From: a virus
Strand: one strand, 5' to 3'
IMG/VR virus record: IMGVR_UViG_3300021197_001203
Location: 1-64,000 of that record
Length of the DNA: 64,000 nt
Each line of letters begins with the position of its first letter. The first letter of the stretch is position 1. Below are positions 11,316 to 49,000 of the stretch, in pieces. The notes beneath the pieces were generated by a model, which saw nothing but the letters and a program-made list of their open reading frames with translations, made no database searches and had not been told where the DNA came from. Made by a program: the position numbers and the translations under genes.

Positions 11316-11378
11316 TAACAACTAATTATTTTACAATGGTATATGAATGAGATTGTGTTAAGGCTGACAACCCTAACA

Positions 11379-31105: not shown

Positions 31106-31834
31106 TTACAGGAGTTCAACAATAGATAATAGCACTTTCTCGACATTTACGCCATGTTGTGCCGACATAGCGTCTATTTCAGCCCTAACTCCCGCCTTAC
31201 GGAGTCTTTTCAATTCGCCTCTAAAGGGCGAGATTATAGGGTGTTCTCTCGCTAAACCATTATCCCAAAGTACCTGTGCTTGAGGGGACCACCATAAATC
31301 CATTTTATTAGCAACAATTAACACTAATTTGGGCATATATACTGACTTAGCAGTTTTCTTTGCCTTACGAGATATTTCAGATGATACATCTTTACGTGTT
31401 ATATTGTCCACTAAATAAGTAAAGGATGCTAAAGCATCTTTTAGAAATGCTGGCGAAGTGACTACTCTATGATCAATCATAAACACAACAATTTCGACTT
31501 TTCTTCCAAACATATCTTCGATCCATAAATTACGGAACTGTGCTTGTCCCGCTATGTCAGAATTAGAAATTGGAATCCTTTCTTTTTTCCATCTAATCAA
31601 TTTCCGGTGTGCTTTGGGCTGAACGGGTTTGCCGTTTATTATCGGGTGCGATGTTCTCATTTCAAGGGGTATTGGGTCTATATCACCGGGGACTGTCAGA
31701 TATTGGTCTAGTGTAGTCTTACCCGTCATACTAGGGCCATATATGCCCACCCTGAATGGCCTCATTATCCTGTATATCTTCTGTAAGGCATTAACTGAAG
31801 CTAATAGAAGATGCCCTGCGATAACCGCACTCAT
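31106..31834 (-). CDS. Small Ras-superfamily (Arf/Sar-like) GTPase
   Basis: G1 GPSMTGKT, G2 T (EMRT), G3 DIAGQ followed by Arf-type RNLW, G4 NKMD and G5 SA. Hydrophobic/amphipathic N-terminal helix. Confidence 0.85.
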   Translation of the reverse strand: MSAVIAGHLLLASVNALQKIYRIMRPFRVGIYGPSMTGKTTLDQYLTVPGDIDPIPLEMRTSHPIINGKPVQPKAHRKLIRWKKERIPISNSDIAGQAQFRNLWIEDMFGRKVEIVVFMIDHRVVTSPAFLKDALASFTYLVDNITRKDVSSEISRKAKKTAKSVYMPKLVLIVANKMDLWWSPQAQVLWDNGLAREHPIISPFRGELKRLRKAGVRAEIDAMSAQHGVNVEKVLLSIVELL

Positions 31835-32751: not shown

Positions 32752-35067
32752 TTAAGCGATTTTTCTGCCGCTTTGCGATTCTCGGATAGAGTTTTGTTGT
32801 ATTACTCGGAATATGTCATCTAATGCTTGACCATGTTCCATGTAAGATGTGTTTTCGTTTTCTCTTCTGAAACACATCCGGCATCCCATTTCACCAGTCA
32901 TTGGGTCAATATTCATGTCGCATTTTGTATCTGCACCGGGGAGTGATGCCGGACAAACCTGCTGCCGACTATTACCGCCAAAACCTTTCGGTGTTATCGT
33001 GCTTGTTGTAATTCCGGGGGATTCTAAAATCGAAGCGATGTCACCAACCCTGTCATTTCGTCCTTCTTTGCCCTTATACCACTCAGGTTCCTTGTCAATA
33101 GAAATCCTCATTGTTGCATTATCGGGCAAATGAGACTCTTGTGTCCCCCCTCTAGCCTCCATAGCCTCTCTTATGTATTGAGCTTGGCGTGAAGAAATCC
33201 AATGTTCTAAGTCTCGTAATTCTCTTGGGGTTTGTTGTTGTAGGAGATCGAAATAAGCTGAAACTTCACCGGGGCCTCTAAAATCTCCTGAAGCCTTTCC
33301 TCTAACATAACCCTTACCTGCAAGGTGTTTAGGCGCATTTCTTTTATTATTTGCGGTTTTCATCGCTTCAGAATACATTTCATTTTGCATGGCTGAAAGA
33401 TATTTAGGCATATCATTAAGAGAATTGTATAGATTACGGTGATATTTTCTTTGTGGGCCATTAAACGCCATTTTATTTTGAGCAGCATAACATATTTTAC
33501 AGGCCCCAGTTTTCATCGTACAAGCATGAACGGGCATATCCCCCAATGATATTCCGGGCATTTTACCGGGATTACCAAAGCCAGCCATTAACTTCGATTG
33601 TTTGTCGCTGCCCTCCCATGTTGGTATTTCCATCCCTTCTAAGGGATAATCCACTAGATTAGGGTTATCTTTGGGACCAGTGAGCTGTTGAACCTTTTCG
33701 GGGTATAGATTTATGAAATCAATTATATCTCTATTACCCCCCCCATACATCTGACCTTCAGGGCGTGGTGGGCCGTAATTTCCTTTTTTGTCTTTATTCC
33801 ACGGATATGGCACCGCATCCGGCAACTTACCACCGAACAGCTCTTCCCAAAAGAACATTTCACCGGGTTGCCCCCAGTGTTCTGAATCAAATACTGCTTT
33901 AACCAGCCCCCACGCATCTTCAAAGGTATTGTCTTCTGATAGATTAATGATCTGACCGAGCATTGCATTTTCTAATACGTCTCGGCCTGTATTGGTAAAA
34001 TCGCTTTCTCTAGCTAGAATACCATGAGTTGGGGTCACAAGACCCCGTTTCAAACCGAGTTTATCAGGATTGCTGCCTATATTCATAGGCACAGGAACTC
34101 CCTGATGCTTGAAACCTGATGAATCTCTATATGACGGCATTCTCCCTAACTCGTCTAATATTCTCATTATAGGGTCTATTGAGCCTGTCACTTTACTACT
34201 GTAAGGGACACCATCAGTGTGAACATCTGTATCTAAAGAACCAATACGATCACGCCAGTCATAATCATCAACATCTTCTCTATATTCCCTGTTATCAACA
34301 GAATATTTACCTTCTTTTGGGGTCAAATTGGGGTTTTTTGGTGTTGAGAAATCATAACCCACCATTATTAGAGGTCTGCCCGTTTCTTTATCCCAGCCCT
34401 GCATCGCCCCTTTCTTATCCCTGAAAAGGTCAACATCGTCCCCCCAATCTTGTAGCAACCGGGATTGGTCTAAACCTTCACCCAAAATATCAGATAATTC
34501 CCCGCGGCCTAGATTGCCGTGAACCCACATATGTTCATTTTTCTTACCATCGGCTTTTCTTTGACCATCAATTCTATGAGACCTAGACTGTGCGCCTCTC
34601 GATACATTAAATCTAGGGTCGTCTAAAGGGGTAGCATTAGAAGCCGCTAATGTTGTAAAACGCCCTTGTTTTTGAGGGTCTTCATCAAACCTTCTTTGTA
34701 ATGAGTGCATACCGCCTAAAGCTGGAAAATATTCACCACCAATTAAAGTAGGTGACGGAAGCGTATTACGTCCCGTAAATTGATTATTCCTAAACAAACG
34801 AGTGTTGTAGTCCCCAAAACGGTCTTTAGCAAACCGTGGTATAGCTAATCTGTCTCTCAATAATCGGCTCATACTCCTATGCGACCTTTTATCATCTAAT
34901 AAAGGATAAATAACTTCTCTAAGTGGATTTATTGTTGATTCTATACGGTCCACTGGGGTACGCTGCTGCCCCATTAACGCCCTAGTATTGAACCCATCAA
35001 TTGTAGCCCCGTCAAAGTCTAATGCAGTTTTCCAGCTCTTTTCAAAGAGACTGTCGTCACTGCCCAT
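32752..35067 (-). CDS. Doubly tagged protein with C-terminal GP88-like (Cys-rich, radical-SAM-like) domain
   Basis: N-terminal FEKSW tag and internal FEDAWGLVK tag. GP88-like motifs KMPG..C......C..CYA, VR...SGDF, W..SR, N..MRIS and CP...C...C..CF. Confidence 0.7.
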   Translation of the reverse strand: MGSDDSLFEKSWKTALDFDGATIDGFNTRALMGQQRTPVDRIESTINPLREVIYPLLDDKRSHRSMSRLLRDRLAIPRFAKDRFGDYNTRLFRNNQFTGRNTLPSPTLIGGEYFPALGGMHSLQRRFDEDPQKQGRFTTLAASNATPLDDPRFNVSRGAQSRSHRIDGQRKADGKKNEHMWVHGNLGRGELSDILGEGLDQSRLLQDWGDDVDLFRDKKGAMQGWDKETGRPLIMVGYDFSTPKNPNLTPKEGKYSVDNREYREDVDDYDWRDRIGSLDTDVHTDGVPYSSKVTGSIDPIMRILDELGRMPSYRDSSGFKHQGVPVPMNIGSNPDKLGLKRGLVTPTHGILARESDFTNTGRDVLENAMLGQIINLSEDNTFEDAWGLVKAVFDSEHWGQPGEMFFWEELFGGKLPDAVPYPWNKDKKGNYGPPRPEGQMYGGGNRDIIDFINLYPEKVQQLTGPKDNPNLVDYPLEGMEIPTWEGSDKQSKLMAGFGNPGKMPGISLGDMPVHACTMKTGACKICYAAQNKMAFNGPQRKYHRNLYNSLNDMPKYLSAMQNEMYSEAMKTANNKRNAPKHLAGKGYVRGKASGDFRGPGEVSAYFDLLQQQTPRELRDLEHWISSRQAQYIREAMEARGGTQESHLPDNATMRISIDKEPEWYKGKEGRNDRVGDIASILESPGITTSTITPKGFGGNSRQQVCPASLPGADTKCDMNIDPMTGEMGCRMCFRRENENTSYMEHGQALDDIFRVIQQNSIRESQSGRKIA

Positions 35068-35398
35068 AGTGATACTAGGGCATACCATTCATCAAAAGTC
35101 TGCCGGACATTTATAGACGATTGCAGAACATAATATTCTTTGCAGGGGGGGCTATTCATTTGTCTCGTCCCATTTTTTTGACACACCCCTATTGGTAGGC
35201 TGCAACCTAAACCAACCCCCCCCTGCACCTTCTAGTGCAGTTTGTTGATTTCATCAGCAATTTTTCCCAAAATATCAAAAACCTTCAAGGGAACGTACAA
35301 CACAAACAAGAAGGTGCCCACTATGAATAATAATAATAATTCTTTCAACATGGATTTAGAAGACATAAACAAAGCGCATACAATAGCATTTTTATTCT

Positions 35399-36274
35399 TT
35401 GCTGAGGATTATAACGCCAGCAATACAACTTTTGATTCTAGTTTTTATGATCATAGTTAATACTGATCGTAAGCTCAGACAAAGTATGAAAAAACCTGCG
35501 AGGGTCACTAAACTAATACAAAAAACCAAAACATTAGACCCTTCAAATAACGAACCAGCCACGGTTTTAAGTGCAAATAAGGTCACTGGTTGGTCTTTGA
35601 ACTTCCCTATACAAAAGACCTGTCAGCCGTCTAAGCTGTGCATAGAAACCTGCTACTTCGCTTCAGGCATGACGACATGGACAAACTCGTTAAGGAAACA
35701 GCTATGGAATTACGAGTCTTGTGTCGAAGACCCAATTGCCTTTGCTGAAAACATAATATCTGAATATGATAAGAAAATAAAAGGTAAAACAGATTTCTTA
35801 AGATGGAACGGGGGCGGAGATTTGTTTTTTGAATCGACTGAAGCATTGAATTACATCGGTCAAACTAGACCCGACATAGTAATTTGGATAGTCACTAGAA
35901 GGCCCGATATGGCAAAAAGAATAGAGAACCATCCGAATCTCTATGTCCATTTCAGTCTTGATCGAGAATCTATGACTAGAAGAAAAACCGTACTGCCATT
36001 ATTAACCCCTGAAATGCGTAAAAGAGTATTCTTTTCGTATCAAACCGCAGCAGGTGAAGAGCCTGATATGACAAAATTGATTAAAGAGGGGGTAAAATTG
36101 TTCTTTTTTGATAATTATAGGGTGCCTTTAGGTACATATTGGGCAGTAAAAGAAGAAAAAGGGGCTAGATGGGATGCGTTGTGTCCACTCAATAAGATGA
36201 GAAGTGAAGGTAAAGACATAGAAGGTGCCTGTAATGCTTGTCGAAGATGTTTCGATGGTAGCTGGGAACAGTAG
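35399..36274 (+). CDS. GP88-family protein
   Basis: TC.PSKLC.ETCY, LRWNGGGDL, WIVTR, PNLYVHFSLD and CP...C..C..CF. The true start is likely the ATG at 35447 or 35486. Confidence 0.72.
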   Translation: MLRIITPAIQLLILVFMIIVNTDRKLRQSMKKPARVTKLIQKTKTLDPSNNEPATVLSANKVTGWSLNFPIQKTCQPSKLCIETCYFASGMTTWTNSLRKQLWNYESCVEDPIAFAENIISEYDKKIKGKTDFLRWNGGGDLFFESTEALNYIGQTRPDIVIWIVTRRPDMAKRIENHPNLYVHFSLDRESMTRRKTVLPLLTPEMRKRVFFSYQTAAGEEPDMTKLIKEGVKLFFFDNYRVPLGTYWAVKEEKGARWDALCPLNKMRSEGKDIEGACNACRRCFDGSWEQ

Positions 36275-36322: not shown

Positions 36323-36682
36323 TCAGGGTGTGCGTCCAGCTCTTCTAAAGCGATCAATGAGTCCTTTTGAACCAAGAGCTTGGGATGTGCTATCAGGAAT
36401 TGATGGTCCCTGCATTGTATCAGTACGTGCATATTCAGAAGCTGGTTCATTGTCAAACATATCCTTGAGCCTTTCATACTCATCTTCAATACCATCATTA
36501 TCTGTTTCTAATATGTTAGCCATAACCTTTCGATTATGACTTTCACCGTCAGTTGTTGATTTCATATCTGCAAATCTTTTAGGAACAGGTCTGCCGCCTT
36601 CTTTGAGTGAATCCAGCTTACTATTAAACTTCTCACCGAAGTCAGCCTTAACCACATTCCATGCTTGATCAAATGTTGTCAT
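36323..36682 (-). CDS. Tagged hypothetical protein
   Basis: Starts MTTFDQAWNVVK. Confidence 0.7.
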   Translation of the reverse strand: MTTFDQAWNVVKADFGEKFNSKLDSLKEGGRPVPKRFADMKSTTDGESHNRKVMANILETDNDGIEDEYERLKDMFDNEPASEYARTDTMQGPSIPDSTSQALGSKGLIDRFRRAGRTP

Positions 36683-36683
36683 T

Positions 36684-37004
36684 CTATGACCTACCGTAGT
36701 ATTCTTCTTCTGAACCGGGGTGCATTTCGTTTAATGCGGCTTGTGCCCCAACAATCATATCTTCAACCTCTGACATTTCACCGCAGCATTGTTCTGCTAA
36801 TGTAGTTGCTTGGCTAAGTAGTCTGTGTAATTCCTGCACTTTTTTGCCCATGTCTTCCATAGGAGAGCCATCGCTGAGTTGTCCGTTTATTGAACCACTA
36901 AACTCATCTAATTCATCTATATCAATACCATACTGCTCAAGTGTTGCTGGGTCATACCCACCTGACTCTTTTGTTATGTTCCAAGCTTTATCAAATGAGG
37001 ACAT
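36684..37004 (-). CDS. Tagged acidic hypothetical protein
   Basis: Starts MSSFDKAWNITK. GGAGG RBS. Confidence 0.7.
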   Translation of the reverse strand: MSSFDKAWNITKESGGYDPATLEQYGIDIDELDEFSGSINGQLSDGSPMEDMGKKVQELHRLLSQATTLAEQCCGEMSEVEDMIVGAQAALNEMHPGSEEEYYGRS

Positions 37005-37075
37005 TATTTTTTCCTCCTGAATAGTAGTTTGCGTTCCAGTTTGCTAAACAATTTACGTGCTGCCCCTGAGACCAT
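37004..37075 (-). CDS. Possible 23-aa basic peptide (MVSGAARKLFSKLERKLLFRRKK)
   Basis: Fills the gap, and its TAA overlaps the next ATG. Too short for the ORF track. Confidence 0.3.
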   Translation of the reverse strand: MVSGAARKLFSKLERKLLFRRKK

Positions 37076-37112
37076 GTTAGTCTGTAATATTACTATCCTT
37101 TTTTACCTTTCA

Positions 37113-37502
37113 CTATATTTTCCGTGAAACAATGCCTCTTGATTTGATTTTTTTGGGTTTTGACCTTGATACCTCAGTTAAGGGATAACCATACCCCGTG
37201 GTTTTATCTTCTTTAGATTTAGAAGGAACCCGGTGGTTCTTTCTGTCCCTATCAAAATCTTGTTTGCTTTTGTATTTCTTAGGTTTACCCACCTTTGCGT
37301 GTCCTACTAACTCAGCTGGACCTTTACCAGTCCTTATTATGCCGACTTTTTGGCCGACATAGGAGTCAAGTGTGGGTTTTTTACGTGTTTCAACCTTCTT
37401 TTTACCTGATAATATCATATCAGTGTAAGGGACATCTTTGTCATTTATGTTAATTCCCATCTCTTTGACTAGCTGCCAAGCAGTTTCAAACTCGTAGCTC
37501 AT
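37113..37502 (-). CDS. Tagged ASCH-domain-like protein
   Basis: Starts MSYEFETAWQLVK, then PYTDMILSGKKKVETR (ASCH GxKxxExR motif). Leaderless start with TTATTTAT at 37525-37532. Confidence 0.7.
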   Translation of the reverse strand: MSYEFETAWQLVKEMGININDKDVPYTDMILSGKKKVETRKKPTLDSYVGQKVGIIRTGKGPAELVGHAKVGKPKKYKSKQDFDRDRKNHRVPSKSKEDKTTGYGYPLTEVSRSKPKKIKSRGIVSRKI

Positions 37503-37546
37503 TAGCTGGTTGGTGTTTTCGATCATAAATAAGTGATCTGTTAATA

Positions 37547-38410
37547 TTATATTCTTTTGGAAGGATAACGCCGAATCGTTTTATCTGCCATATTAGGGGT
37601 TGAGGGGGTCGTGAAATCGCCGAGGAATGAGCCGTCTGCATAGTAATCGAGCATTCTCATGCCTTCCGTTGAAGGATAGTTGGGTGCATGGTAATTACCG
37701 GGGCCTATGTCATTTGTGTTATCAGACCCAAAATAATATTCCAGCTCGTCCAAAAGCTGGGCATTGACCCCTCTTTTTCCTCCAAACTCAAAGCTAGTCT
37801 TTGGGTTGCTCTTGGCTTCCTCATACGCATCCCTCGCAAGCTGGTCCCACCAATTTTCAAGCTTGTCATCAAAGGCACTCGCATTTGCTTGTCTTCTTGT
37901 AAGAGGCCCTTGTAATATGACTCTTTCACGATTCGGCCACTTTCCCACGTATGCAGTTCGGTCCCATTCATGTCCAGTCCCTGCCCCTTGTGTGTATTGT
38001 GAATCTTGTCCCTTTAACCAGCTCATATCGACTCTAGGCATTTTCATAGCATTCACAGGAAGGCCATCCACAGTCATCTGTTCGGCTGGAAGAAGGTATT
38101 TCTCAGCAACGTCCGGCAGGACGTTCTTCATCCTGTCATATGTGAAAGCCTCCCAAAAATCGTCTTTTTTACCCGGAGATTCATCATTAAGCTGTTCTAA
38201 TAATCGCCTCCCTCCAGCATCCAAATTAGGTACTTTAGCCACAGAGCCGGGGTCGTCCCGAATGTCGAAGACCCTTCTTTGGCCTCCTTGATCAAATGCG
38301 TCTCCTAAGCCCAACTTTTCCGTAGCTATCCGAGAAAGCTCGGTCTCTCTTTCTAATGGGGTCGTATCGTCAAACTTAACTATCTCCCAAGCTTGGTCAA
38401 ATGCGGTCAT
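37547..38410 (-). CDS. Tagged protein-kinase-like fold protein
   Basis: Starts MTAFDQAWEIVK. QGGQRRVF...VAKVP (Gly loop/VAIK-like), DIGPGN (catalytic-loop-like) and MLDY. Confidence 0.55.
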   Translation of the reverse strand: MTAFDQAWEIVKFDDTTPLERETELSRIATEKLGLGDAFDQGGQRRVFDIRDDPGSVAKVPNLDAGGRRLLEQLNDESPGKKDDFWEAFTYDRMKNVLPDVAEKYLLPAEQMTVDGLPVNAMKMPRVDMSWLKGQDSQYTQGAGTGHEWDRTAYVGKWPNRERVILQGPLTRRQANASAFDDKLENWWDQLARDAYEEAKSNPKTSFEFGGKRGVNAQLLDELEYYFGSDNTNDIGPGNYHAPNYPSTEGMRMLDYYADGSFLGDFTTPSTPNMADKTIRRYPSKRI

Positions 38411-38712
38411 TGATGGTCCTCCATCCTATTGTATCGCATCATTACCTCTTCGGGGGTAAGTCCTGAATCAGTCTCTGTATTTTCCCAATCCGTGTCACAC
38501 ACCCCACAACCACCCATTTTCGCACAGCAATCATTACAGATGTAATTTCCCGGTGTCCCACAGGCGTGTTCAGCCATACTATTCATACCGCACAACGGAC
38601 AAGGGGTATTTTCATTGTAAACGTCATCATCCTTCGACCTATCACGATTAGGGTCGATAGATATGGAAAAGTCCTCTTTTACAAGATTCCAAGCTCGATC
38701 AAAGGCGGTCAT
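38407..38712 (-). CDS. Tagged Cys-rich Zn-binding protein
   Basis: Starts MTAFDRAWNLVK. CPLC..C..CNDCC..CGVC. Confidence 0.7.
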   Translation of the reverse strand: MTAFDRAWNLVKEDFSISIDPNRDRSKDDDVYNENTPCPLCGMNSMAEHACGTPGNYICNDCCAKMGGCGVCDTDWENTETDSGLTPEEVMMRYNRMEDHQ

Positions 38713-39101
38713 TCATAATCCTCCATTCTATCTCGGTATGCCTCATAGTCAATACCATATGTTCTTTTAGGGCCAACCGTACTACCGTTTTCAATTGCCT
38801 GATTAAGATCGAATGGCTTGCCATCTCCAAAGAAACCTTCAATCTCCATTGAATCAGACATTCGTTTATCAACCCACGGATGAATACATTTGCTACATAA
38901 TTTTGGAATACCCTCAACTATGTTGTTGATGTCGCTAAAACATCGCTCACATTCACTCGGCCAGTTTACACTTGGGTCGGGGTCAAGCGGTTCTTGAAGC
39001 AATAATTGGTTCTCATTCGCAATTCTTTGTATTTCTTCATCGGAAAACAACCGATGATATACGGACTTCACAATATCCCATGCTCGGTCAAATGCGGTCA
39101 T
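38709..39101 (-). CDS. Tagged Zn-finger protein
   Basis: Starts MTAFDRAWDIVK. CERC..CSKC. Confidence 0.7.
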   Translation of the reverse strand: MTAFDRAWDIVKSVYHRLFSDEEIQRIANENQLLLQEPLDPDPSVNWPSECERCFSDINNIVEGIPKLCSKCIHPWVDKRMSDSMEIEGFFGDGKPFDLNQAIENGSTVGPKRTYGIDYEAYRDRMEDYE

Positions 39102-39721
39102 TGTTCCGCCCTCCTTTGCATTTCTTCAAGGCTCAATTCGGGCGAATGCCCTGTTTCATCGGGATCATCATCAAACCAAGCCAATCTTCTTTTTGGTCTA
39201 TCCACAGGCAGGTTTGCTCTTGCCAATGAATCAAGGTGTCCTCTTTCATAAGTCGGCCAATTTGTAGGTTCATTCACTTCAAAATCACTTTGATGCACCA
39301 ATTCTAAGAACTCCGGTGGTATGGTGACGTTTGAGAATAGGTGCGGTGAACCCCTGCCGTCATATCCTTCACGCATAGGGAATGATGGATCAATTCGTAT
39401 CATTGCAGGTGTAGCCACATCGTCTTGAATGTAGGGAACGCTAAGGTTTGGGTCACGCAGAAGATGAAGCCCTTGCTCATGCGCTCTTTTGCGTTGTGGC
39501 ATATTTGCTGCCATCATACCGTAAAGATTGGCAATGTTGGGATATGATGATGCGAACACCTTTGGCCCAGATCCGTATGTGTCTTTTCCTCCGATGAACT
39601 TGTTGCTATCCTCATACGTTCCGGGCTTCAATCCTTCACGCATTATGTTTTCAACACGATCTGATGTTGTTCCGTGATATGGCATCTTCACGATAGCCCA
39701 TGCGGTATCAAAGGCGGTCAT
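39098..39721 (-). CDS. Tagged ADP-ribosyltransferase-like protein
   Basis: Starts MTAFDTAWAIVK, then YHGT...I.REGL.P, G..VFAS and a terminal IPPE.L, typical of the H-type ART/Tpt1-like fold. Confidence 0.7.
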   Translation of the reverse strand: MTAFDTAWAIVKMPYHGTTSDRVENIMREGLKPGTYEDSNKFIGGKDTYGSGPKVFASSYPNIANLYGMMAANMPQRKRAHEQGLHLLRDPNLSVPYIQDDVATPAMIRIDPSFPMREGYDGRGSPHLFSNVTIPPEFLELVHQSDFEVNEPTNWPTYERGHLDSLARANLPVDRPKRRLAWFDDDPDETGHSPELSLEEMQRRAEQ

Positions 39722-40008
39722 TCCATGCCCTCCAATTCATCGTTCAGATTCAATTCAACCATAGCATCAGGATTTTCCCACCATTCAGTCAATTGTTTGG
39801 CAAACTCATTCGCTATCGAAGGCGACATCGTTTTTATGAAATTGAAAAATTGTTGCATATCTCCTAATCTCTTTGCATACATATCTGATTCATTGATGAT
39901 AGAAAGCATGGAAGCATTATCCGCGTTTCGTTTTCTGAGGAAGTTAATCTGCATCTCATAGTGTGGTGAGTTTTTCACCAAATCCCATGCTCGGTCAAAT
40001 GCGGTCAT
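39718..40008 (-). CDS. Tagged hypothetical protein
   Basis: Starts MTAFDRAWDLVK. Confidence 0.7.
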   Translation of the reverse strand: MTAFDRAWDLVKNSPHYEMQINFLRKRNADNASMLSIINESDMYAKRLGDMQQFFNFIKTMSPSIANEFAKQLTEWWENPDAMVELNLNDELEGME

Positions 40009-40097
40009 TTCGTCACCACTATCCTACAACATGAACCATCGATCACCCTAAGATTACCCAAAGCATTCCCACAATTAGGGCAATAAGATTTACTCAT
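40005..40097 (-). CDS. Small Zn-ribbon peptide (30 aa, MSKSYCPNCGNALGNLRVIDGSCCRIVVTK)
   Basis: Exactly fills the gap with ATGA overlaps at both ends. Confidence 0.5.
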   Translation of the reverse strand: MSKSYCPNCGNALGNLRVIDGSCCRIVVTK

Positions 40098-41551
40098 GAG
40101 GCAATCATCCTCGCATACCACGGCATTTGTTCTAATTCACTTGGAGGAACTACCCAGCGTGTCATGTCGCCTTCTCCACCCTGACCTCTAAATTGATGGA
40201 GATTGTTTTTGTTTGCTAAGTTCCTAGCCAAATTAGACCCTCTTTCAACCCCCTCGTACCCTTTGTCAGCGATAAATTGTTCCATAAAATTAGATGTGAC
40301 TCCGGGGACATTTGACACTACTAAAGATTCAGGCTTGATTGCTTTGCCCGCTGTTTTCTGACTCCCAGCTCTATTTACCTGAGCGTTCTGAAGCTTGTCG
40401 TGTCGAGCCATCAATATACTCAGGGGCAAACCACGCTCATTTATTGCATCTATAACTGGTTTTGTTGCGCTATTGTAAGTAAATGTGGGTGTCCCCTGTT
40501 CAGCCAACTCTTTGTGTTTGTCATAAACATCACCAGTCAATTCATCTGACCATACGTGCTGACCTTTTTCGCCTCCGCCATAAGGGGGGTCTTGGCCTAC
40601 TATATCTTTGTCAGCTGCAATATCAGCCCTGTCATAAAAATCACTAAAGTCATCGTTTGTAAATGCCCAGTTTTCCATTATCTTAGACCACGGACTAACA
40701 TCCCACGGGTCCATCTCTAAGTTCCCTCCACCTGAGAAAAGATTCAGACCCTGAGCTGAAAAGATAGGACCTGTTTCAAGATCAGACCTACCAAACTTCC
40801 TGTCCCCGGTTTCGGCTTCAAGAAAATCAGCAGCTCTTTGTGCATAGGAGGGAGTCAATTTACCCCCAGCATAGGACTGTTTTGCCCCCGGTGCCGAATT
40901 AACAAGACCCCTACTATTTGTCCTCCAAATACTGTTATAGACTCCCCTACTTAACCCCAAAATATTTCTCATCAATTCCTGTTTTTCTTGGGTACTAAGA
41001 TTTCCTGAACGATAATCGGGTAATTTTTGATTTACCGTTGCTCTTAATTCATTGACCCTTTGGGGCATATATACCCCATCTTCAAATACAGAATTAGGAT
41101 TTAGTTTTCTAGCCTCTTCTATATCCGCAGCTGTAATTTCAGGTAGCGTGTGCAACAACTCAGAACCTTGATTCGGCGAAGAAAACAAACGAGGCTCATC
41201 ACCTACTCTATACAAAATATCTTTTGGATCGAATGCTAATGCTTCGGGGTTATCTCTCATCATTTCATTCATATCAACTAAAAGCTGGTCCTTATCATTA
41301 CCAAAATAACCCTCTTCAGCTCTAACCGCTAAGGGGACAGCCAAGCTACCCATAAACGGTTCAACCAATCTGCGGCCAGTGGTACCCCCGCCGCCTCTTC
41401 TTGACTTACCATACAGATAAGCATTGATCGCACGATACATCGGGTCGTCTTTGTTGCCAGCTACTTTGTAGGCTGGAGGCGCAGCTGTGTTATACTTCAG
41501 CGCGTTTAGAATCTGCTGCATAGCAGGATGGGATTTGCGAAGACTAGCCAT
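40094..41551 (-). CDS. Dam-like (D12 class) DNA adenine methyltransferase, with insertions
   Basis: KVAGNK (motif X), VEPFMGSLAV (motif I), GNDKD..L, N..WRTN..G..N and DPPY (motif IV). Start MASLRKSH at 41551 after a GGTGA RBS. Confidence 0.75.
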   Translation of the reverse strand: MASLRKSHPAMQQILNALKYNTAAPPAYKVAGNKDDPMYRAINAYLYGKSRRGGGGTTGRRLVEPFMGSLAVPLAVRAEEGYFGNDKDQLLVDMNEMMRDNPEALAFDPKDILYRVGDEPRLFSSPNQGSELLHTLPEITAADIEEARKLNPNSVFEDGVYMPQRVNELRATVNQKLPDYRSGNLSTQEKQELMRNILGLSRGVYNSIWRTNSRGLVNSAPGAKQSYAGGKLTPSYAQRAADFLEAETGDRKFGRSDLETGPIFSAQGLNLFSGGGNLEMDPWDVSPWSKIMENWAFTNDDFSDFYDRADIAADKDIVGQDPPYGGGEKGQHVWSDELTGDVYDKHKELAEQGTPTFTYNSATKPVIDAINERGLPLSILMARHDKLQNAQVNRAGSQKTAGKAIKPESLVVSNVPGVTSNFMEQFIADKGYEGVERGSNLARNLANKNNLHQFRGQGGEGDMTRWVVPPSELEQMPWYARMIAS

Positions 41552-41553
41552 GA

Positions 41554-42444
41554 TCACCACTGTGGTTTCCCATAGGGTTTTACCCATTTTTCACAAGTCG
41601 TACAATATTTGTCATTCCATTCCCCTCTTGCTAGATTTAGATTGCCATCGCAATATGGACAAGTTTTTTGCTGCCTTTTGGAAATTATGGAAAATGATTT
41701 ACGAAGTTTTCTTTTATTATCCATCATTTGATGGTATCTAGCCAAAGCGGGATGCCACTGCGCCCTTGCTAAAGGATTCGGGTTCGGCATCAAACGTCTA
41801 TCATCCACAGCTGCATTTATGCCCATTCTTGCTAAATGCTGGTCCTGTTCCAATTTCCTGTCTCGTTTTCCTGAAGAATCCGTTATAGGGTCAATCTCAC
41901 CCAAAGTCGCTGCATATTCCTCTTGGTAATCATCTAACCTCTCTTCTTGAGATATTCCCGAAGAAGATAATGCCTGATGTATTGCCTCATGAGAAGCTAT
42001 CTCATTCATCCGGCTACCCCAACTAATGTCCTCATCCTCAGTCAAATCTCGGTCTAAGTCATCAATATTTTCCATTCCTAATATCTGAGCTAATACCTTT
42101 TCAGGATGGTTTCTAGCTGAATAAGGGCCTCTCCACTTGAGGGGGGCATAATTATCGCCACGCTCATTTGTCGCAATTCCGGTTTCTTTTAACCGTCTAA
42201 GCGGGCCAGCACTTGTTGTTTGACCTAAAGCACCCCCATGAGGTGCCTCTTCGCCCCAATCATCTAAGTAATCAGAAGTCCCTATTCTTGATTCAAGTTC
42301 TTCTTCTGAAGGGTCTCTTGTTGACGTTTCCCAATTGCTAGTCGTCAACGTGCTGGGTGCAGGAAAGCCAAATCTTGTCGGTGTTCTAGGATATGAAATC
42401 CTTGCCTTTACCAACTCCCAAGAGCTATCAAAGGCATCCGCCAT
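41554..42444 (-). CDS. Tagged zincin-type metallopeptidase-like protein
   Basis: Starts MADAFDSSWELVK. HEAIH with downstream EEYAA, and a C-terminal CPYC..CTTC. Confidence 0.65.
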   Translation of the reverse strand: MADAFDSSWELVKARISYPRTPTRFGFPAPSTLTTSNWETSTRDPSEEELESRIGTSDYLDDWGEEAPHGGALGQTTSAGPLRRLKETGIATNERGDNYAPLKWRGPYSARNHPEKVLAQILGMENIDDLDRDLTEDEDISWGSRMNEIASHEAIHQALSSSGISQEERLDDYQEEYAATLGEIDPITDSSGKRDRKLEQDQHLARMGINAAVDDRRLMPNPNPLARAQWHPALARYHQMMDNKRKLRKSFSIISKRQQKTCPYCDGNLNLARGEWNDKYCTTCEKWVKPYGKPQW

Positions 42445-42450
42445 GTATGT

Positions 42451-42642
42451 TCACTCTTTACCATCCTTCTTTTGCTTTACCATTATCTCGGTCCAAGCAT
42501 GACTATGTAAATCGTCCATCAGCTTACGTTGTGTTTCTAAATAATCACGCCATATCGGTTTCCGATTAGACTTCTCCATTTCCTCTAATTGAATATCCCA
42601 ATACTCTTCGGTCATACTCATATTACTCTTCCCAATCTTCAA
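42451..42642 (-). CDS. Hypothetical protein
   Basis: Short ORF. The true start is probably MSMTEEYW. Confidence 0.5.
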   Translation of the reverse strand: MKIGKSNMSMTEEYWDIQLEEMEKSNRKPIWRDYLETQRKLMDDLHSHAWTEIMVKQKKDGKE

Positions 42643-42966
42643 ATGATTCTGTCATAAATGCTTGCCACATTTTACAAGCACCATTGTGATGTTTTCTATC
42701 TTTCATTGTATTCCTCCTTTTCTAGTTGCTACCCAAAACCAAAAGGTATGAGAAACCGACCAAAACCACTTATCTAGCTTGCTCATTGTTTGCCTCATCG
42801 ATCAAAGTAAGGGTGAGGTGGCATATTTGCGTGGCGACAATTACAAAGAATGTATTGACATAAAACATCGCCATTTCCAATTTTATTGGTTGAGAAACTA
42901 TGCTTTCTAGTATCACGGTCTCCAACATGGTGTAAAAATTACACCGATTGTATTAATCTTTTTTGG

Positions 42967-43191
42967 TTATTTTTTCCAAAATCTATCCTCTAATTGCCTT
43001 TTCTCTCTTAACCGCTTCCTTGCTGCGGCCTTTGCACGACCCCTGCCAGCAGTACCGTCTCTCCTACGCTGGCTCTTTTCCTTGAGATAACATTTACCAC
43101 ACATACGCTGAAGCTCACTGGTCTGTTCACCGATCCCATTTGCCCTGCGATTAAACTCTCCACAGGTCGGACATCGGCGGGCCGAAGACAT
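42967..43191 (-). CDS. Basic Zn-finger protein
   Basis: CPTC...CGKC with an Arg/Lys-rich tail. Confidence 0.6.
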   Translation of the reverse strand: MSSARRCPTCGEFNRRANGIGEQTSELQRMCGKCYLKEKSQRRRDGTAGRGRAKAAARKRLREKRQLEDRFWKK

Positions 43192-43221
43192 AAATCGAAT
43201 AAAAAGTGTTAATTATTTAAC

Positions 43222-43404
43222 TTAACGGCTTTTTTTGTCGCTTTGAACTTGAACTCGCACATCTTGTGCGGTTCCCTTGATAGATTGCATAGCCACACGA
43301 ACTCTTGTTCCAGCTGCGCCATTACCTCTATCGTGCTTCTCAGCATCTGCGAGGGCGTTTTCTAGTTTTGTCATCATTCCTTTGATCATATCTGCAACAG
43401 ACAT
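43222..43404 (-). CDS. Histone H1-like Hc1-family nucleoid protein
   Basis: DAEK..RGN.AAGTRVR..MQ..K..AQ..R matches the Hc1 core. Leaderless, with TTATAACT at 43426-43433. Confidence 0.7.
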   Translation of the reverse strand: MSVADMIKGMMTKLENALADAEKHDRGNGAAGTRVRVAMQSIKGTAQDVRVQVQSDKKSR

Positions 43405-43479
43405 GACACGGGTGCGAATCCTGTTAGTTATAACAATTGTTGTGAAATAAGGGCATATACCCCCTATTTAGAGGTATAA

Positions 43480-44097
43480 TTAGCAATTCCATCTATCAAG
43501 AGCTGCGCCCTTTGGTGTTTTCTTGCCTTCTTTGCTGGTTGGACCCTTAACCCCACCCATTCTAGCGCAGAATGATTTACGCCTCTTTGCCTTCTTACTG
43601 TCAGGGTTGAGGGTTGATGGCTTCTCGGTCACTGGTGGTTTCAGGTTAGCACCTTCTTCACGCTTTGCTTTAGCTCGACCCTTAGCATTCAATCCACCTT
43701 CTTTGCTGTGTTTGTTAGGATTGTAGCCATGAAACGGTTTGTCATCCTTTTTCTCAAGAATATTATTGATCGAAACACAAATACCACAATTACAGGTTTT
43801 AGTCAGCTTGTCCCAGTTCTTCTTGTCAGGGTAGTCCTTGTCTCCGGGTTTAGCTGCCTTCTCGCCTCTTTTCTTTTTGGCGTGAACATTATCCCAAAGA
43901 CCACGTTTGCCTTTATCCATGTAAGTCATACTCTTTTCGATTTCATCCTCCTGATTTGCTGAAACACAAGTATAACAACTGTGTTTACCCAAATCATCCA
44001 TACCGTGAGCAGGGTCGCCACAATAATGACAATCAGGGCCTTCTCCCTCATACGGCCATTCTTTCAAGACACCCCAAGCCTTGTCGAATGCGGTCAT
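43480..44097 (-). CDS. Tagged multi-module basic protein
   Basis: Starts MTAFDKAWGVLK, then a Zn finger, GLWDNVHAKKKRGEK and the common phage basic module GGLNAKGR..NLKPPV..RRKSFCARM..W.C. Confidence 0.7.
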   Translation of the reverse strand: MTAFDKAWGVLKEWPYEGEGPDCHYCGDPAHGMDDLGKHSCYTCVSANQEDEIEKSMTYMDKGKRGLWDNVHAKKKRGEKAAKPGDKDYPDKKNWDKLTKTCNCGICVSINNILEKKDDKPFHGYNPNKHSKEGGLNAKGRAKAKREEGANLKPPVTEKPSTLNPDSKKAKRRKSFCARMGGVKGPTSKEGKKTPKGAALDRWNC

Positions 44098-44468
44098 TCC
44101 ATGTCCTCCGGCATACCATTATTGAAAAATCCCTGTAATATGTTCTGAAGGTAGGTATCAGCAGCAGCATCGTCATCTTGGTATTCATTATTCAATTCTG
44201 AGATACCCGTTTCTTGTTCTGATAATGAAGGCCCGTGATCTGCACAATAATATCCTGTGTCGCTACCAAAAAGCCCTTCCCATGAGGCTATATCGCCACA
44301 ACCGGGATGCTCACACATGGGATAATCCTCGTCATCATAATCATTACTGTCAATTTTGAACCATGATGGTGTTTTTTGATTCCACGGCAGGGGACCACCC
44401 TCATCATCGTGAGTCCTCCCTTCGATTGTGTTTTTCACCAAATCCCATGCTTCATCAAATGCGGTCAT
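44094..44468 (-). CDS. Tagged acidic Zn-finger protein
   Basis: Start reassigned to MTAFDEAWDLVK at 44468. CEHPGC...YCADH. Confidence 0.7.
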   Translation of the reverse strand: MTAFDEAWDLVKNTIEGRTHDDEGGPLPWNQKTPSWFKIDSNDYDDEDYPMCEHPGCGDIASWEGLFGSDTGYYCADHGPSLSEQETGISELNNEYQDDDAAADTYLQNILQGFFNNGMPEDME

Positions 44469-44469
44469 C

Positions 44470-44757
44470 TTACTCAATCCTTCCTCGATCCTTGTAGCAC
44501 CCTTTACAAAAGGCATTACCTTGCTTTGATTCGTAGCTTATGTTTTCATCGTTAAACTCTTTACCGCACAGCTGGCATTCATTACCTGCATAGCCGCCCG
44601 GACCCATCTTGACAATGTTCCAAGCTCGGTCAAAAGATTTCTTTACGTCTTTCGCAGCATAACAAGGACACTTAGGCTCAGTCTTAGAGCATTTCATGAT
44701 GCCCTGCTTCATACAAGCACAAGGGTTAGACTTGGTGGCCCCGCAACAGCAGCCCAC
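44470..44757 (-). CDS. Cys-rich protein with internal tag
   Basis: Metallothionein-like CCCG..CAC..C..CPC N-half, internal SFDRAWNIVK, then CQLC..CKGC. Confidence 0.65.
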   Translation of the reverse strand: MGCCCGATKSNPCACMKQGIMKCSKTEPKCPCYAAKDVKKSFDRAWNIVKMGPGGYAGNECQLCGKEFNDENISYESKQGNAFCKGCYKDRGRIE

Positions 44758-45162
44758 TTACATCAAGCCTCGTAGCATATCCATGAGCTTAATTTTGTCA
44801 AGAGTCCCATAAATGTCTTCACCTTCGTAATCACCCATGAAATCAGGGGCTAGTGGTTCGTATGGACCGCCTTCATAATGTCGGTCGAATAATTCAGACA
44901 TATCAGGACGGTCTTTCGTATATTGAGCGTAAGGACCCGCTTCGGTCCCATCATATCCTATATCTCGATAAACTTCAGGGTCTGACATCAACATTTCAAT
45001 CATAGGAACCATACTAGCTGGTACTTCCATAGTCACCATCCCTCCTTCTATGTCTTGGGCTATTGATTGTTGATCTGCAAAAACATCTTCATCTGTTCTG
45101 CTTAACTCTTTATTAACGACATTCCAGCTTTGCTCAAAAACAAAATCTTCGGCATCCGACAT
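44758..45162 (-). CDS. Tagged acidic protein, first gene of the minus-strand arm
   Basis: Start reassigned to MSDAEDFVFEQSWNVVNK at 45162. TATA-like CTATTAAC at 45184-45191. Confidence 0.65.
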   Translation of the reverse strand: MSDAEDFVFEQSWNVVNKELSRTDEDVFADQQSIAQDIEGGMVTMEVPASMVPMIEMLMSDPEVYRDIGYDGTEAGPYAQYTKDRPDMSELFDRHYEGGPYEPLAPDFMGDYEGEDIYGTLDKIKLMDMLRGLM

Positions 45163-45199
45163 ATCACACGCCACGGTACCATCGTTAATAGAATTGTCG

Positions 45200-45940
45200 A
45201 AAAAAAATACCCCGAAAAAAAATACCCGAATATACTCCAAAAACACAGGTTTTTTCGATCAAAATGCCACCATGACAGCCCTGACAAAAAAATATCAGAA
45301 AAATCGCCGAGCTGCGTATGCGGTGAGGCGGGCGCAGCCCGCCAAAAAAAAAAAAAATATCGGCACCGAAGCCTAGCCATTGCTCAATGGGTGTGGCGGG
45401 CTAACCACCATTCACCAATGCCATTGCCCAGCCCCATTCAATAGCTAAACCCATTCGATCAGACCAGCTTGAGAACACATTGGTGAATGGCTGGGCTGAA
45501 ACGCCCAGCAACACACCCATTCAAGCCTAAATCTAGGGCTATTGACGGCTATCTGAGGCCATTCACGCCCATCCAGCCCACCGTATATCATTCGGGCTGG
45601 TTGCATTGGTCAATGAGGCCACATTGACACGCCATTCACCCATTCGCCAATCCCATTGACCAATGCCCAGCCAAAGCGCAGATGTTCGTGATATAATGAA
45701 AGTGGGTTATTGGGATAGGTGTCTTAGGTTGGCTGGACGAAAAGAGCATACTGCGGGCTTATCGAGACACGTATGACACGATGGACAGACACAATATACT
45801 ACTTTTACAAAGAACGATTTAATTATACTCTGATTTAGAGTATTATAGAGAGGCTGTCCAGTGTCCAACGTGGGTTTTGTCCTATGTTATCGATGTCTGT
45901 TAGAAACAGCCTAGAAAGGGGTGTTTAGGCTGGTTTGACC
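45200..45940. other. Non-coding strand-switch region (candidate origin/packaging or genome-end region)
   Basis: Lies between the divergent arms. A-tracts (A14 at 45344-45357), repeated dyads and imperfect hairpin 45904-45936. Confidence 0.55.
45378..45666. repeat. Repeated dyad CATT[GC]nn[CG]AAT[GC] (6 copies) forming two 13-bp inverted-repeat pairs
   Basis: Copies at 45378, 45409, 45478, 45604, 45641 and 45654. Perfect inverted repeats 45408-45420/45478-45490 and 45603-45615/45654-45666. Confidence 0.8.
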
Positions 45941-45948
45941 AACAGTGC

Positions 45949-45997
45949 TTAAGTAGGGTGTTCAACCCCGTAGGGGTATGTAGTCCGATGTGGCTAC
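45949..45997 (+). promoter_or_regulatory. Early-type promoter: TATA-GGGTG plus 5' hairpin
   Basis: TTAAGTA GGGTG, with hairpin GTAGTCC..GGCTAC at 45980-45997. Confidence 0.6.
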
Positions 45998-46018
45998 GAT
46001 TAAATGGAAGTGTAAAAT

Positions 46019-49000
46019 ATGAGTATGACAGAAATAATGAATGTAATGAGAATGATACTAGGCAGTCTATTGCCTAGCGTATTCGGCCAAAAGGCTGGAT
46101 TAGAGATGACTGTAATGAGTGAGGCTAGAATCGGTGAAGCTGCCGATCAATTATACCACACCGATTTAGTGCTAATACAACAAGAACTACGCACATTATC
46201 GCACGTTGTTATCACCAATGAGTGGACTGGTGAACACCCAAAGAGAACCGATATGACACATGGTCTTGAAGCACAAATGAAAGTGGACAGATTAATCAAA
46301 GCGTCAGCAACACTAGAGACATACGCAAATGGCTGTGAATGTATCGAATGTAAGTTTGTAGTAGCAAAGGAGATGCCTAGCCTAAAGAATGTAGTATTAG
46401 GGACACCAGTGTCCTCATTCACATGGACAGGGACAGGTATGGTCGAAGAGGCCATTACACCTGACCCAGCACTAGAATTAGATGTGCCTATTACAGAAGA
46501 TGAAATTAGGTATCACATGAAGAAGTGGAACGGTGTAATACGGTCAACCTTCGTATGGCAACACAAAATGAATGCTGCTGAATTGATCGAAGATTTGCGT
46601 AAAGCGTCTTATCCTGCGGCTGGATATGAACCGACCTATGTTGGTGGTGGCAGTGATGCAGAACACGATTGGGTTGAGGCTAACTATAATTTCGATTCAG
46701 AATATGATAGAGAAAAGAATCGAATGAATGCTTCAATGGTAGTAGTGAATGAGGCTAGAACTGCAAATGGGTATAACCTCGATAGGGATAGGACAATACA
46801 CGATGTTCAGCCAGTAGTTAAGTCAATGAAAGAAGTGGAGGGCTGGACACAAGAGATGCTCTATATTATTATCCGTGATAGCACAAACGCATCTGATCGA
46901 GTGGAGGCGGCTGAAATGCTTGTTGAGCTAAAACAGAAGCAATTACACAGCTATCTGAAAGACAACCTAAAACCATCTGTCTTTAGAGCCGTGGATTTTG
47001 TTATTGGTTGTATGCCTAGCGACCTAGATTTGAACACGACAGTGGTGCAGGAATCCCGTGTTAATGATGAAGAACTTAGAGGCTTTCAAGACTATCGCAT
47101 GGGTGCAACACATCAGGCTACTGATGGTCTATACTATGAGACACCATTAGATGAATGCCTGTGGCAGATTCTTGACCGAGAAGATGTGGAGGCTAATTGT
47201 GGCTTAGAAGAGGGTGAAATAACCGAAGCGGCTTGGAAACAATTTCTTGCGTTGCATAAGGATGCCTTCGCTAGTGCGGTTTGTGCGTTGGCTTCGGAAT
47301 ATTACAATGATTATCATACACCAAAAGATGACTTGAGCGATACAGTAGTGCAGGAATCAAGAACTAGAATGTCATATATGTTCAAAGAAGGAGATGAATA
47401 TCCAGTCTCAGTGGCAAATAAATCTCAAGCTCACAAAATGCTTGTTCATATGATTGCTCATGCTTCGGGGGACGGCACACCTATTGCTATCGTTGTGGCC
47501 AACACATATGCAGATGAAGCCTTCGACATACCTATGGAAACTCCACATTCAGGAGATGAGTTATTGCATGGGACATATCAAGCAGTCAAAGAAGTTAGAG
47601 ACGGACAGAGCGTTCATGTTCAATTAAGTCGAGACGATGAAAGATTCGATCACACGACAGTAAAAACTAGCCATGTATGGGACAGGAGGACTTTGACTAA
47701 TTCAGACATTAACAGACTTAGAGAGCAATGGAATAGAGAGTTAGATGGTTTAGATTCAGACTCAAGATTCTTTCCTTATTCGATAACTGGTGCGAGGGCT
47801 GCTTCTAGCTTAATTGGCCAGCTTCTGACTAAAGCAGAAGATGATGATTATGGCGGTTCAGTAATGGTCAATGTTCTATGTGCCGAATACAAAGCAGAAC
47901 AGGTGTTGCGTGTGTATAATTTGAAAGATGAGTTTGGCGATCAGATTATGTCTCAAGCGGCTGGGTATAATCTCCCAATGACCGATGTAAGTCTGTTAGA
48001 GATGAGTCATTCAGTACCACTCATTGGTTATCGTGAGGCTAAAAATACCTTTATTTCATTAGATGGAGGTCGCTGGAGTCTTTCATGGGCTATTACTGGT
48101 AGTTATGATGATATGACTAATGAGTCGCCTAGAATAGAGATTAGCAACCATTACGTTATTGACAAATCAATTAGAGATTTGTGCGACCACATATTAACAC
48201 GAAAAGACAGTGGTCGCTTACTAACCACAGGACAGGTAAAGTCTGATGTGTTAGTCAAAGCCACAAGTAAAGAAAACACATATCTTGTTTCAGACCACCA
48301 GTTAAAGATAGTCAAGAAGGATTTGGCTGACCTTCGATCAGCCGCACAGCTCTCGCTAGATGACACAGTAGTCCATGAGGTTAGATTGGACATACCTGAT
48401 GAGCATTGGGACACACTGATGGAGACATTACTACTAGATACTGAAACAATGGCAATAGAGCCGTCTGAGAGGGACAGAATACGTGAGGCTTTGGATAGTG
48501 TCGAGACAGTCAATCCTTTCTTTGATAGAGGTCAATTGCATTGTGGATTTGATGTTCTTAAGAATCCACTTTACAGAATATCTCTTGCTGATGCGATTAA
48601 TGTATGTAAAGCAGGAGGATTAGTGTGGTTGGCTAATGAATCTCAAGATAACTATGGAGGGGAGGACAGCAGACACTATTCATACCCCGTTGAGAACCAT
48701 GAAGACCTATATGATTATGAAGATAGTGAAGAATTATTGATCGTATTAGAACCAATGTTTTACAATAAGCATGGTAATTTACTGGAGGGACATATACTAC
48801 CTAATTCTAAAGATGGTGTATGGAAGGTGTCATTGACTCTAGCTAGAGATGCGAGACATAGATTAGCTGATGAAACACACTTCGATGAAGAGCATATTGA
48901 AGGCGAAATTAAGTCATGGTTAGAGGACATAGACTACCGTGTCCTTGAGTGCGACATTATAGATGTATCAAACATCCCTAATGCTAACGATGGGGTCTAT

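Follow-up and report, generated by a model that had tools for sequence, protein, structure and literature searches.

The first 64,000 bases (1-64000, hereafter the window) of an IMG/VR virus record, a single contig of 108,315 bp that is complete according to CheckV, contain a row of late genes whose mutually unrelated products have only a short N-terminal peptide, the tag, in common. Codon comparisons show that the 36-base stretches encoding this tag resemble one another more closely as DNA than conservation of the peptide requires. These stretches probably act as joints for homologous recombination, which deletes, inserts and swaps the genes behind the tag, so that this row of probable virion-cargo genes changes fast. 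The original prediction for this stretch held that a segment composed of ribosome-binding site (RBS) and tag is a homology module through which payloads are gained, lost or swapped in a recombinase-free, integron-like array.

In the 13 tagged genes of the array, the tag lies at the gene start with the consensus M-T-A-F-D-x-A-W-x-x-V-K (12 residues, 36 nt). The core motif F[DE]x[AS]WxxVK is present in 18 copies in the window and in 20 copies in the 108-kb genome. None lies outside the minus (late) strand, and the copies are almost always N-terminal. The array genes are all co-oriented and mostly coupled through ATGA overlaps, which join five gene pairs (starts at 44097, 39721, 39101, 38712 and 38410), and the RBS of the next gene sits in the 3' end of each cassette. 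By using a degenerate DNA pattern with third positions left free, we identified 58 IMG/VR loci (L001-L058) on 47 contigs, with 335 tagged open reading frames (ORFs) and arrays that reach 18 genes. The families of cargo found in the window are dispersed across many contigs, in differing orders.

The recombination part of this reading is supported by direct sequence evidence from natural variants. No relatives were found in IMG/VR with the GP88-like protein or with the methyltransferase of the array, and one metagenome scan with the methyltransferase as query returned two contigs, L059 and L060. The first aligns to the window with 96.7% identity over 43953-39974 and then with 99.0% identity over 39102-38689, and the two alignment blocks overlap by 36 nt on L059. 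The starts of the 96-aa and 130-aa genes carry an exact 27-bp direct repeat (27 of 27 positions, ATGACCGCATTTGACCGAGCATGGGAT). In a three-way alignment, L059 has the sequence upstream of the 96-aa gene, then the 27-bp repeat, then the 130-aa payload, so that one strain possesses and the other lacks the 907 bp between the repeats, which correspond to the 96-aa payload together with the entire 207-aa gene. The crossover between the window and L059 falls inside the repeat, which makes it a chimeric junction. Past the 130-aa gene, L059 changes at +14 of the next tag, that of the 101-aa gene, to a different payload of 134 aa.

The second contig, L060, is 80-92% identical to the window. After the methyltransferase it has payloads of 153, 76 and 140 aa in the slots of the 96-, 207- and 130-aa genes of the window, and homology returns at the 101-, 287- and 137-aa genes. 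The slot of the 106-aa gene holds a 56-aa payload, with breaks at +15 of the tag of the 106-aa gene and at +16 of the next tag, while the slot of the 124-aa gene retains the upstream sequence and the tag but changes payload at +26. Relative to the Phe codons of the tags, the breaks of L060 are at +26, -24, +15 and +16. The original prediction expected breakpoints of gene gain, loss and swap to fall in the tags, as opposed to an invariant gene order and content with breakpoints unrelated to tags. Among the close relatives the row does vary, and its breakpoints are found in tags, one of them exactly in the 27-bp repeat.

The same type of junction is detectable across the lineage. A search for simple indels among all loci returned further tag-to-tag chimeric indels in L015 compared to L032/L022 and in L011 compared to L006/L016, each with a junction seen in two independent assemblies (L022 and L032; L006 and L016). 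Three other loci (L005, L040 and L048) are identical in the upstream region, with the promoter, and in the tag (M-G-E-A-F-D-R-A-W-G-L-V-K), and each continues from the codon after the tag Lys with a payload unrelated to the other two, within 5 kb of flanking sequence that is 92-97% identical. We also located the endpoints of all high-scoring segment pairs with at least 85% identity between different contigs, taking as tag window the positions from -12 to +30 of the Phe codon. Tag windows hold 96 of the 280 internal endpoints, compared to 9.4 expected by random placement. This raw count is inflated by the mutual likeness of the tags, through which alignments continue into whichever tag adjoins them. 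When gene starts are compared over the 47 IMG/VR contigs, 88 of 150 tagged starts (59%) but only 27 of 216 untagged starts (12.5%) have a homology endpoint (odds ratio approximately 10, P-value = 6e-21). Both this contrast and the three chimeric junctions are independent of the inflation of endpoints.

Exchange of a whole cassette is best seen for the 130-aa gene, which is the clearest mobile unit as judged from sequence comparison. The block shared with L002 runs from the ATG of the tag to eight bases into the tag of the next gene, and its flanks are unrelated. The two contigs are moderately distant, with 84% amino acid identity between their large terminases (TerL) and 88% between their capsid proteins. 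At third codon positions the identity is 0.885 in the cassette, compared to 0.40 in TerL and 0.52 in the major capsid protein (MCP). An exact 35-nt probe from the cassette has L002 as its sole match in IMG/VR, and, together with the window and L059, the cassette is found in three different neighbourhoods. The 119-aa cassette behaves similarly, with a third-position identity of 0.864 between the window and L052 and of 0.53-0.57 in the core genes.

The likeness between tags at the DNA level goes beyond the 27-bp repeat. We found again the match of 36 out of 39 positions between 39970-40008 and 44430-44468, as well as the junction GGAGG[GA]CATGGAATGACCGC, which recurs at 39714-39733 and 44090-44109 with 19 of 20 positions identical and, taken alone, is estimated to be just marginally above chance. 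The 36-nt tags of the seven genes that start with MTAFD have a pairwise identity of 78% on average and 92% at maximum. Identity drops to background on either side, with 34% in the 36 nt that precede the tag and 27% in the 36 nt that follow, which identifies the tag itself as the unit of homology. To the proposed module of RBS and tag, the RBS contributes little, no more than its GGAGG.

Codon choice indicates that this likeness exceeds the constraint on the peptide. Codon identity among the seven MTAFD tags amounts to 87, compared to 63 ± 7.6 expected from protein constraint and codon usage (P-value = 0.004). All seven encode Thr at position 2 by ACC, which has a frequency of 0.14 in the genome, and CGA, with 0.09, encodes the variable-position Arg in four out of four. 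We extended the comparison to 195 unique tags and the bodies of the same genes across the lineage. ACC accounts for 70% of Thr codons in tags and 23% in bodies, and ACT for 1% and 24%, respectively; GAC accounts for 80% and 30% of Asp codons, and AAG for 87% and 35% of Lys codons at the variable positions, while variable-position Arg is CGA without exception in tags and in 16% of cases in bodies. Codon optimisation and a generic N-terminal effect were rejected as sources of these codons, because the capsid gene almost never uses ACC, CGA and GCC and the tag-type bias is absent from untagged N-termini.

We then simulated the expected synonymous identity of tags with the codon usage of each contig. 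The observed identity is higher than expected both between contigs (0.476 and 0.397, respectively) and within contigs (0.542 and 0.430), which shows a lineage-wide conservation plus an additional homogeneity within each genome. The predicted excess of synonymous likeness was thus recovered at both levels. Contig-specific codon usage accounts for approximately half of the excess similarity within genomes and was rejected as its full cause. The variable residues of the tag are themselves genome-specific (0.282 within contigs and 0.199 between contigs). At one variable position the codons in use are CGA (Arg) and CAA (Gln), which are one transition apart, and this fits the descent and copying of a single DNA element.

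Several observations weigh against the tags as joints of homologous recombination. At a mean identity of approximately 78% over 36 nt, only some pairs of tags offer at least 20 bp of perfect homology. Three of the six simple indels have just one boundary at a tag, and the far end of the replacement in L005, L040 and L048 is not at a tag. Every sequence comes from a metagenome assembly, so the junctions are known at the level of assemblies. Finally, the lineage-wide codon preference could be the sign of a function at the RNA or DNA level instead of copying.

This last point leads to the alternative that survives best, namely that tag DNA is conserved for a nucleic acid function, for instance as a site where translation starts or restarts at the ATGA overlaps, or where a regulatory RNA or protein binds, and that recombination is a passive by-product. 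It draws on the recurrence of ACC, GAC, AAG, CGA and GTG in the tags of contigs whose core genes are synonymously saturated, and on the many tags that begin in the ATGA stop/start overlap behind GGAGG. However, the tag region folds no better than shuffled sequence (z between -0.25 and -0.75), the highly expressed capsid gene avoids the tag codons and untagged starts are unbiased, and the single transition between CGA and CAA points to DNA descent rather than to codon selection. A nucleic acid function would account for the conservation and is compatible with the chimeric junctions, but it does not account for them, and we consider it unlikely as the main explanation.

A second possibility is that protein constraint and codon usage produce the likeness, while illegitimate recombination produces the rearrangements and selection retains the events at gene boundaries. 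Since the genes abut or overlap, surviving indels must end near gene starts, and conserved tags attract BLAST endpoints. This explanation is highly improbable in view of the excess of codon identity and the shared rare codons, of crossovers inside identical stretches of tag with parental flanks on either side, and of the roughly ten-fold more frequent breakpoints at tagged than at untagged starts. We hold it to be equally improbable that the mosaicism is artificial, created where the assembly of a metagenome switched at a repeated tag to another strain or to another part of one genome. All sequences are indeed assemblies and the junctions do lie on repeats, but these are 27-36 nt long, mostly imperfect and shorter than the k-mers on which such assemblers would be expected to end. 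Moreover, the same junctions recur in independent assemblies, and the shared cassettes differ by 1-8% and greatly exceed the core genes in third-position identity, a pattern that chimeric assembly cannot yield. Least credible of all is a dedicated site-specific recombinase that recognises tag DNA as integrons recognise attC, which would fit the conserved tag DNA and the one-orientation array of putatively promoterless cassettes with one control region, but not the lack of matches to tyrosine integrase (PF00589, with positive control genomes) and serine resolvase (PF00239) in the CheckV-complete genome, the lack of a hairpin or attC-like site in the folding comparison given above, and crossover points that are scattered from -10 to +28 over the tag with no single position.

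The integron model as such was rejected on the same grounds, and the missing integrase, resolvase and hairpin fit the part of the original prediction that posits no dedicated site-specific recombinase. General recombination enzymes are still required, a qualification to recombinase-free, and the virus apparently encodes some. A candidate recombination and repair cluster lies in the early arm, beyond the window (G000 68314-74296; L061 4314-10296). It comprises genes for a PD-(D/E)XK exonuclease, an ERCC4 nuclease with helix-hairpin-helix, a PAPS-reductase-domain protein and a protein with a weak match to Sak4-like annealases. The early region also encodes a helicase. From these early-region nuclease, helicase and annealase-like genes we infer that the virus may supply its own recombination machinery.

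Under the reading that we prefer, homologous recombination between tags inserts, deletes or exchanges whole units composed of tag end, payload, RBS and next tag start, both within one genome and between co-infecting relatives. The enzymes would be general recombination functions of the host or of the virus, for instance the PD-(D/E)XK exonuclease, the protein weakly matching Sak4-like annealases and the ERCC4 nuclease, and continual copying and homogenisation by the same recombination would keep the tag DNA uniform. Since crossovers in the tag are in frame and retain the next RBS, each product is again a translated, coupled and tagged gene. The dependence on homology between tags also implies that only payloads already tagged are shuffled. 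Of the proposed capture of any domain, tag homology does not account for the first step, the entry of an untagged gene into the pool.

The tag peptide is modelled as a separate N-terminal helix (residues 3-11) ahead of the payload, with F, A, W and V/L at i, i+3, i+4 and i+7. About 25% of the tags in the 58 IMG/VR loci continue as K-[MA]-P-hydrophobic before at least four unrelated payload families (YHGT, which is ADP-ribosyltransferase-like; LYQG...DTGYWTP; PIVPGSL/PLDVDSI; and a helix-turn-helix-like family), which suggests that the tag may extend three residues further. The tag ends with [VIL][VIL]K, and the C-terminal part of the protease-scaffold protein has three [VI][IV]K sites. Similarly, the N-terminus of the MCP (A-N-A-W-A-Y-S-G-T-D-L-L-K-A-D), which is conserved in L017 and L027, resembles the tag end with its LLK-A. 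It is possible, from these motifs, that all three are cleavage sites of the same head protease. Structure comparison of the 207-aa payload returned KptA/Tpt1 as top match, followed by DarT and toxin ADP-ribosyltransferases, with low TM-scores (0.3-0.36), and members of its family have weak Pfam matches to PARP and Tpt1. On these low-scoring structural matches, the payload has a predicted ADP-ribosyltransferase fold.

These features are consistent with the tag as a putative sorting signal that would load payloads into the procapsid, where the head protease would clip them after the Lys. This is our best guess, with about an even chance of being right. The putative cargo would include proteins with ADP-ribosyltransferase fold, ASCH-like proteins and Zn-ribbon proteins. 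A more doubtful extension, which we advance only tentatively, is that tag DNA is a selected device, with one 36-bp element acting as both address label of the protein and recombination linker. If so, the viruses of this lineage would share an exchangeable pool of virion cargo, and whatever payload recombination places behind a tag would be expressed, packaged and delivered with no additional adaptation, in a natural plug-and-play cargo system of viruses of uncultured marine archaea.

Natural variants show the turnover of a probable arsenal for host takeover or counter-defence through a homology patch inside the gene that also encodes a putative sorting signal. The tag marks hundreds of uncharacterised proteins in abundant ocean viruses of uncultured archaea and thus offers a sequence handle for candidate cargo. 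If packaging is true, it would also be a ready peptide for loading foreign proteins into HK97-fold capsids of archaeal viruses.

The late genes of the genome occupy the minus strand from approximately 45.2 kb down to 1, while early genes run on the plus strand from 46 kb and include those for a UvrD-like helicase and a group II chaperonin (thermosome). The virus is a marine, tailed virus of archaeal type that looks magrovirus-like by gene content, and its gene layout agrees with that of published tailed viruses of marine group II archaea (PMC5434244). The features of the window are collected in Table 1. Most of the array payloads have no match in Pfam.

Table 1. Positions of the tagged-gene array, its cassettes and repeats, and landmark genes in the window
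Feature	Position	Strand	Remarks
SU10-like major capsid protein (MCP)	8793-9959	-	Late arm
S78 prohead protease, long C-terminal extension	9999-11321	-	Pfam S78
Portal	16922-18715	-	Late arm
Large terminase (TerL)	20008-21378	-	Late arm
GP88-like gene	35399-36274	+	Bounds the array on the other side; GP88 (PF17338) domain
Tagged-gene array	36323-45246	-	13 tagged probable cargo genes and 4 untagged genes
119-aa cassette	36323-36682	-	Close to L052 at third codon positions
106-aa cassette	36684-37004	-	56-aa payload instead in L060
137-aa cassette (tag ...MSYEFETAWQLVK)	37113-37526	-	Weak ASCH-domain match; 78% aa identity in L025
287-aa cassette	37547-38410	-	No family match; kept in L060 (91-92%)
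101-aa Cys-rich cassette	38407-38712	-	In L060 at 92%; 134-aa payload instead in L059
130-aa cassette	38709-39101	-	Nucleotide identity 99% in L059, 91.6% in L002; neighbours differ in all three genomes
27-bp exact direct repeat, copy 2	39075-39101	-	Tag start of 130-aa gene; right arm of 907-bp indel
207-aa cassette (MTAFDTAWAIVK-MPYHGT...)	39098-39721	-	Predicted ADP-ribosyltransferase-fold payload; missing in L059, replaced in L060
96-aa cassette (MTAFDRAWDLVK...)	39718-40008	-	Payload missing in L059, replaced in L060
27-bp exact direct repeat, copy 1	39982-40008	-	Tag start of 96-aa gene; left arm of 907-bp indel
D12-class N6-adenine DNA methyltransferase	40094-41587	-	Without recognisable tag
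296-aa cassette (MADAFDSSWELVK)	41554-42444	-	HEAIH string (motif read from sequence)
Three small untagged genes (63, 74, 60 aa)	42451-43404	-	Inside the array
205-aa cassette (MTAFDKAWGVLK)	43480-44097	-	DUF6321 C-terminal domain
124-aa cassette (MTAFDEAWDLVK)	44094-44468	-	
95-aa Cys-rich ORF	44470-44757	-	Tag at residues 41-50
First array gene, divergent tag (DFVFEQSWNVVNK)	44758-45246	-	Acidic payload; translation probably begins with the ATG at 45162
Divergent late/early control region	45250-46019		Adjoins the array on one side

The presence of a tag can differ between homologues of the same gene. Those of the 205-aa cassette are often untagged in other contigs, and the homologue of the D12 methyltransferase in L025 (37% identical) is tagged. 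A homologue of the 119-aa payload in L060 (6858-6968) is preceded by a non-tag sequence (…E-D-V-D-K-A-D-F-G-E-K), so this payload exists in both tagged and untagged form. The homologues of the 95-aa ORF in L015, L022 and L032 have shorter leaders. At its start the methyltransferase shares 34 nt with the preceding gene, and another possible ATG is situated near 41551. Between two small genes of the array, positions 42730-42954 are 84% identical to L052:6065-6289. The sole ORF able to explain this similarity encodes 52 aa (42770-42928, minus strand), and the region is perhaps a small gene, perhaps a non-coding element.

Outside the array, a 778-aa ORF (32752-35088, minus strand) begins with a tag-like sequence (SLFEKSWKTA) and contains a second, full tag inside, at residue 388 (NTFEDAWGLVK). 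Elsewhere its halves are separate genes, the N-terminal half in L044/L023 and the C-terminal half in L012/L028, where it has a tag of its own, which gives the ORF the look of two fused cassettes. A GP88 (PF17338) domain is present in the C-terminal half and also in the gene at 35399-36274, which has the opposite orientation. A late protein of 242 aa (31106-31834, minus strand) has weak, sub-threshold Pfam matches to the small GTPases Arf and Ras.

In a limited comparison with the magrovirus literature, we found no mention of the tag or of its arrays. The nearest described mechanism, by analogy, is the modular shuffling of promoter-early stem-loop (PeSL) cassettes in T4-type phages (Arbiol et al. 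2010, PMC2839356; Comeau et al. 2014, PMC4122927). There, short repeats flank accessory ORFs in hyperplastic regions, and relatives differ by insertions, deletions and replacements bounded by the repeats; these arise through homologous recombination, with crossovers mapped in the repeat and no dedicated integrase, and the authors draw the comparison with integrons (PMC2839356). Here too, repeats flank ORFs that vary between close relatives and crossovers fall inside the repeat. PeSLs, however, are intergenic elements of approximately 100 bp with a promoter and a stem-loop, while the joint described here is 36 bp of coding sequence with no stem-loop, and its cassettes are putatively without a promoter of their own.

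The internal-protein (IP) loci of T-even phages, with their capsid targeting sequence (CTS), resemble the array in that unrelated proteins share a short N-terminal peptide and are encoded in small hypervariable loci (PMC3012670, PMC2839356). Both systems belong to tailed viruses with a head protease, although this protease is S78 here and gp21 in T4, and the tag MTAFDxAWxxVK has no similarity to the CTS of T4. T4 also has an ADP-ribosyltransferase cargo, Alt, which recalls the 207-aa payload. The shuffling of T-even IP genes is credited to PeSL-like intergenic elements, and not to the codons of the CTS (PMC2839356).

A coding leader that serves as the 5' recombination joint for swapping gene bodies is known from the upstream homology sequence (UHS) of the vmp genes of Borrelia hermsii, which covers approximately 60 nt, from the start region into the codons of the signal peptide (PMC3974855). 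That system is bacterial and differs in having one expression site with silent archives, unidirectional gene conversion, a lipoprotein signal peptide as leader and a different element, the DHS, as 3' joint. With integrons the array shares a row of putatively promoterless cassettes in one orientation, read from one end, and their rapid gain, loss and reshuffling, but it has neither IntI nor attC hairpins, its crossover positions are variable and it exchanges only genes that are already tagged. The theory of modular evolution predicted linker sequences between exchangeable genes, and the documented cases are mostly intergenic. The array is PeSL-like shuffling in a new form, with the joint inside the coding DNA of the tag.

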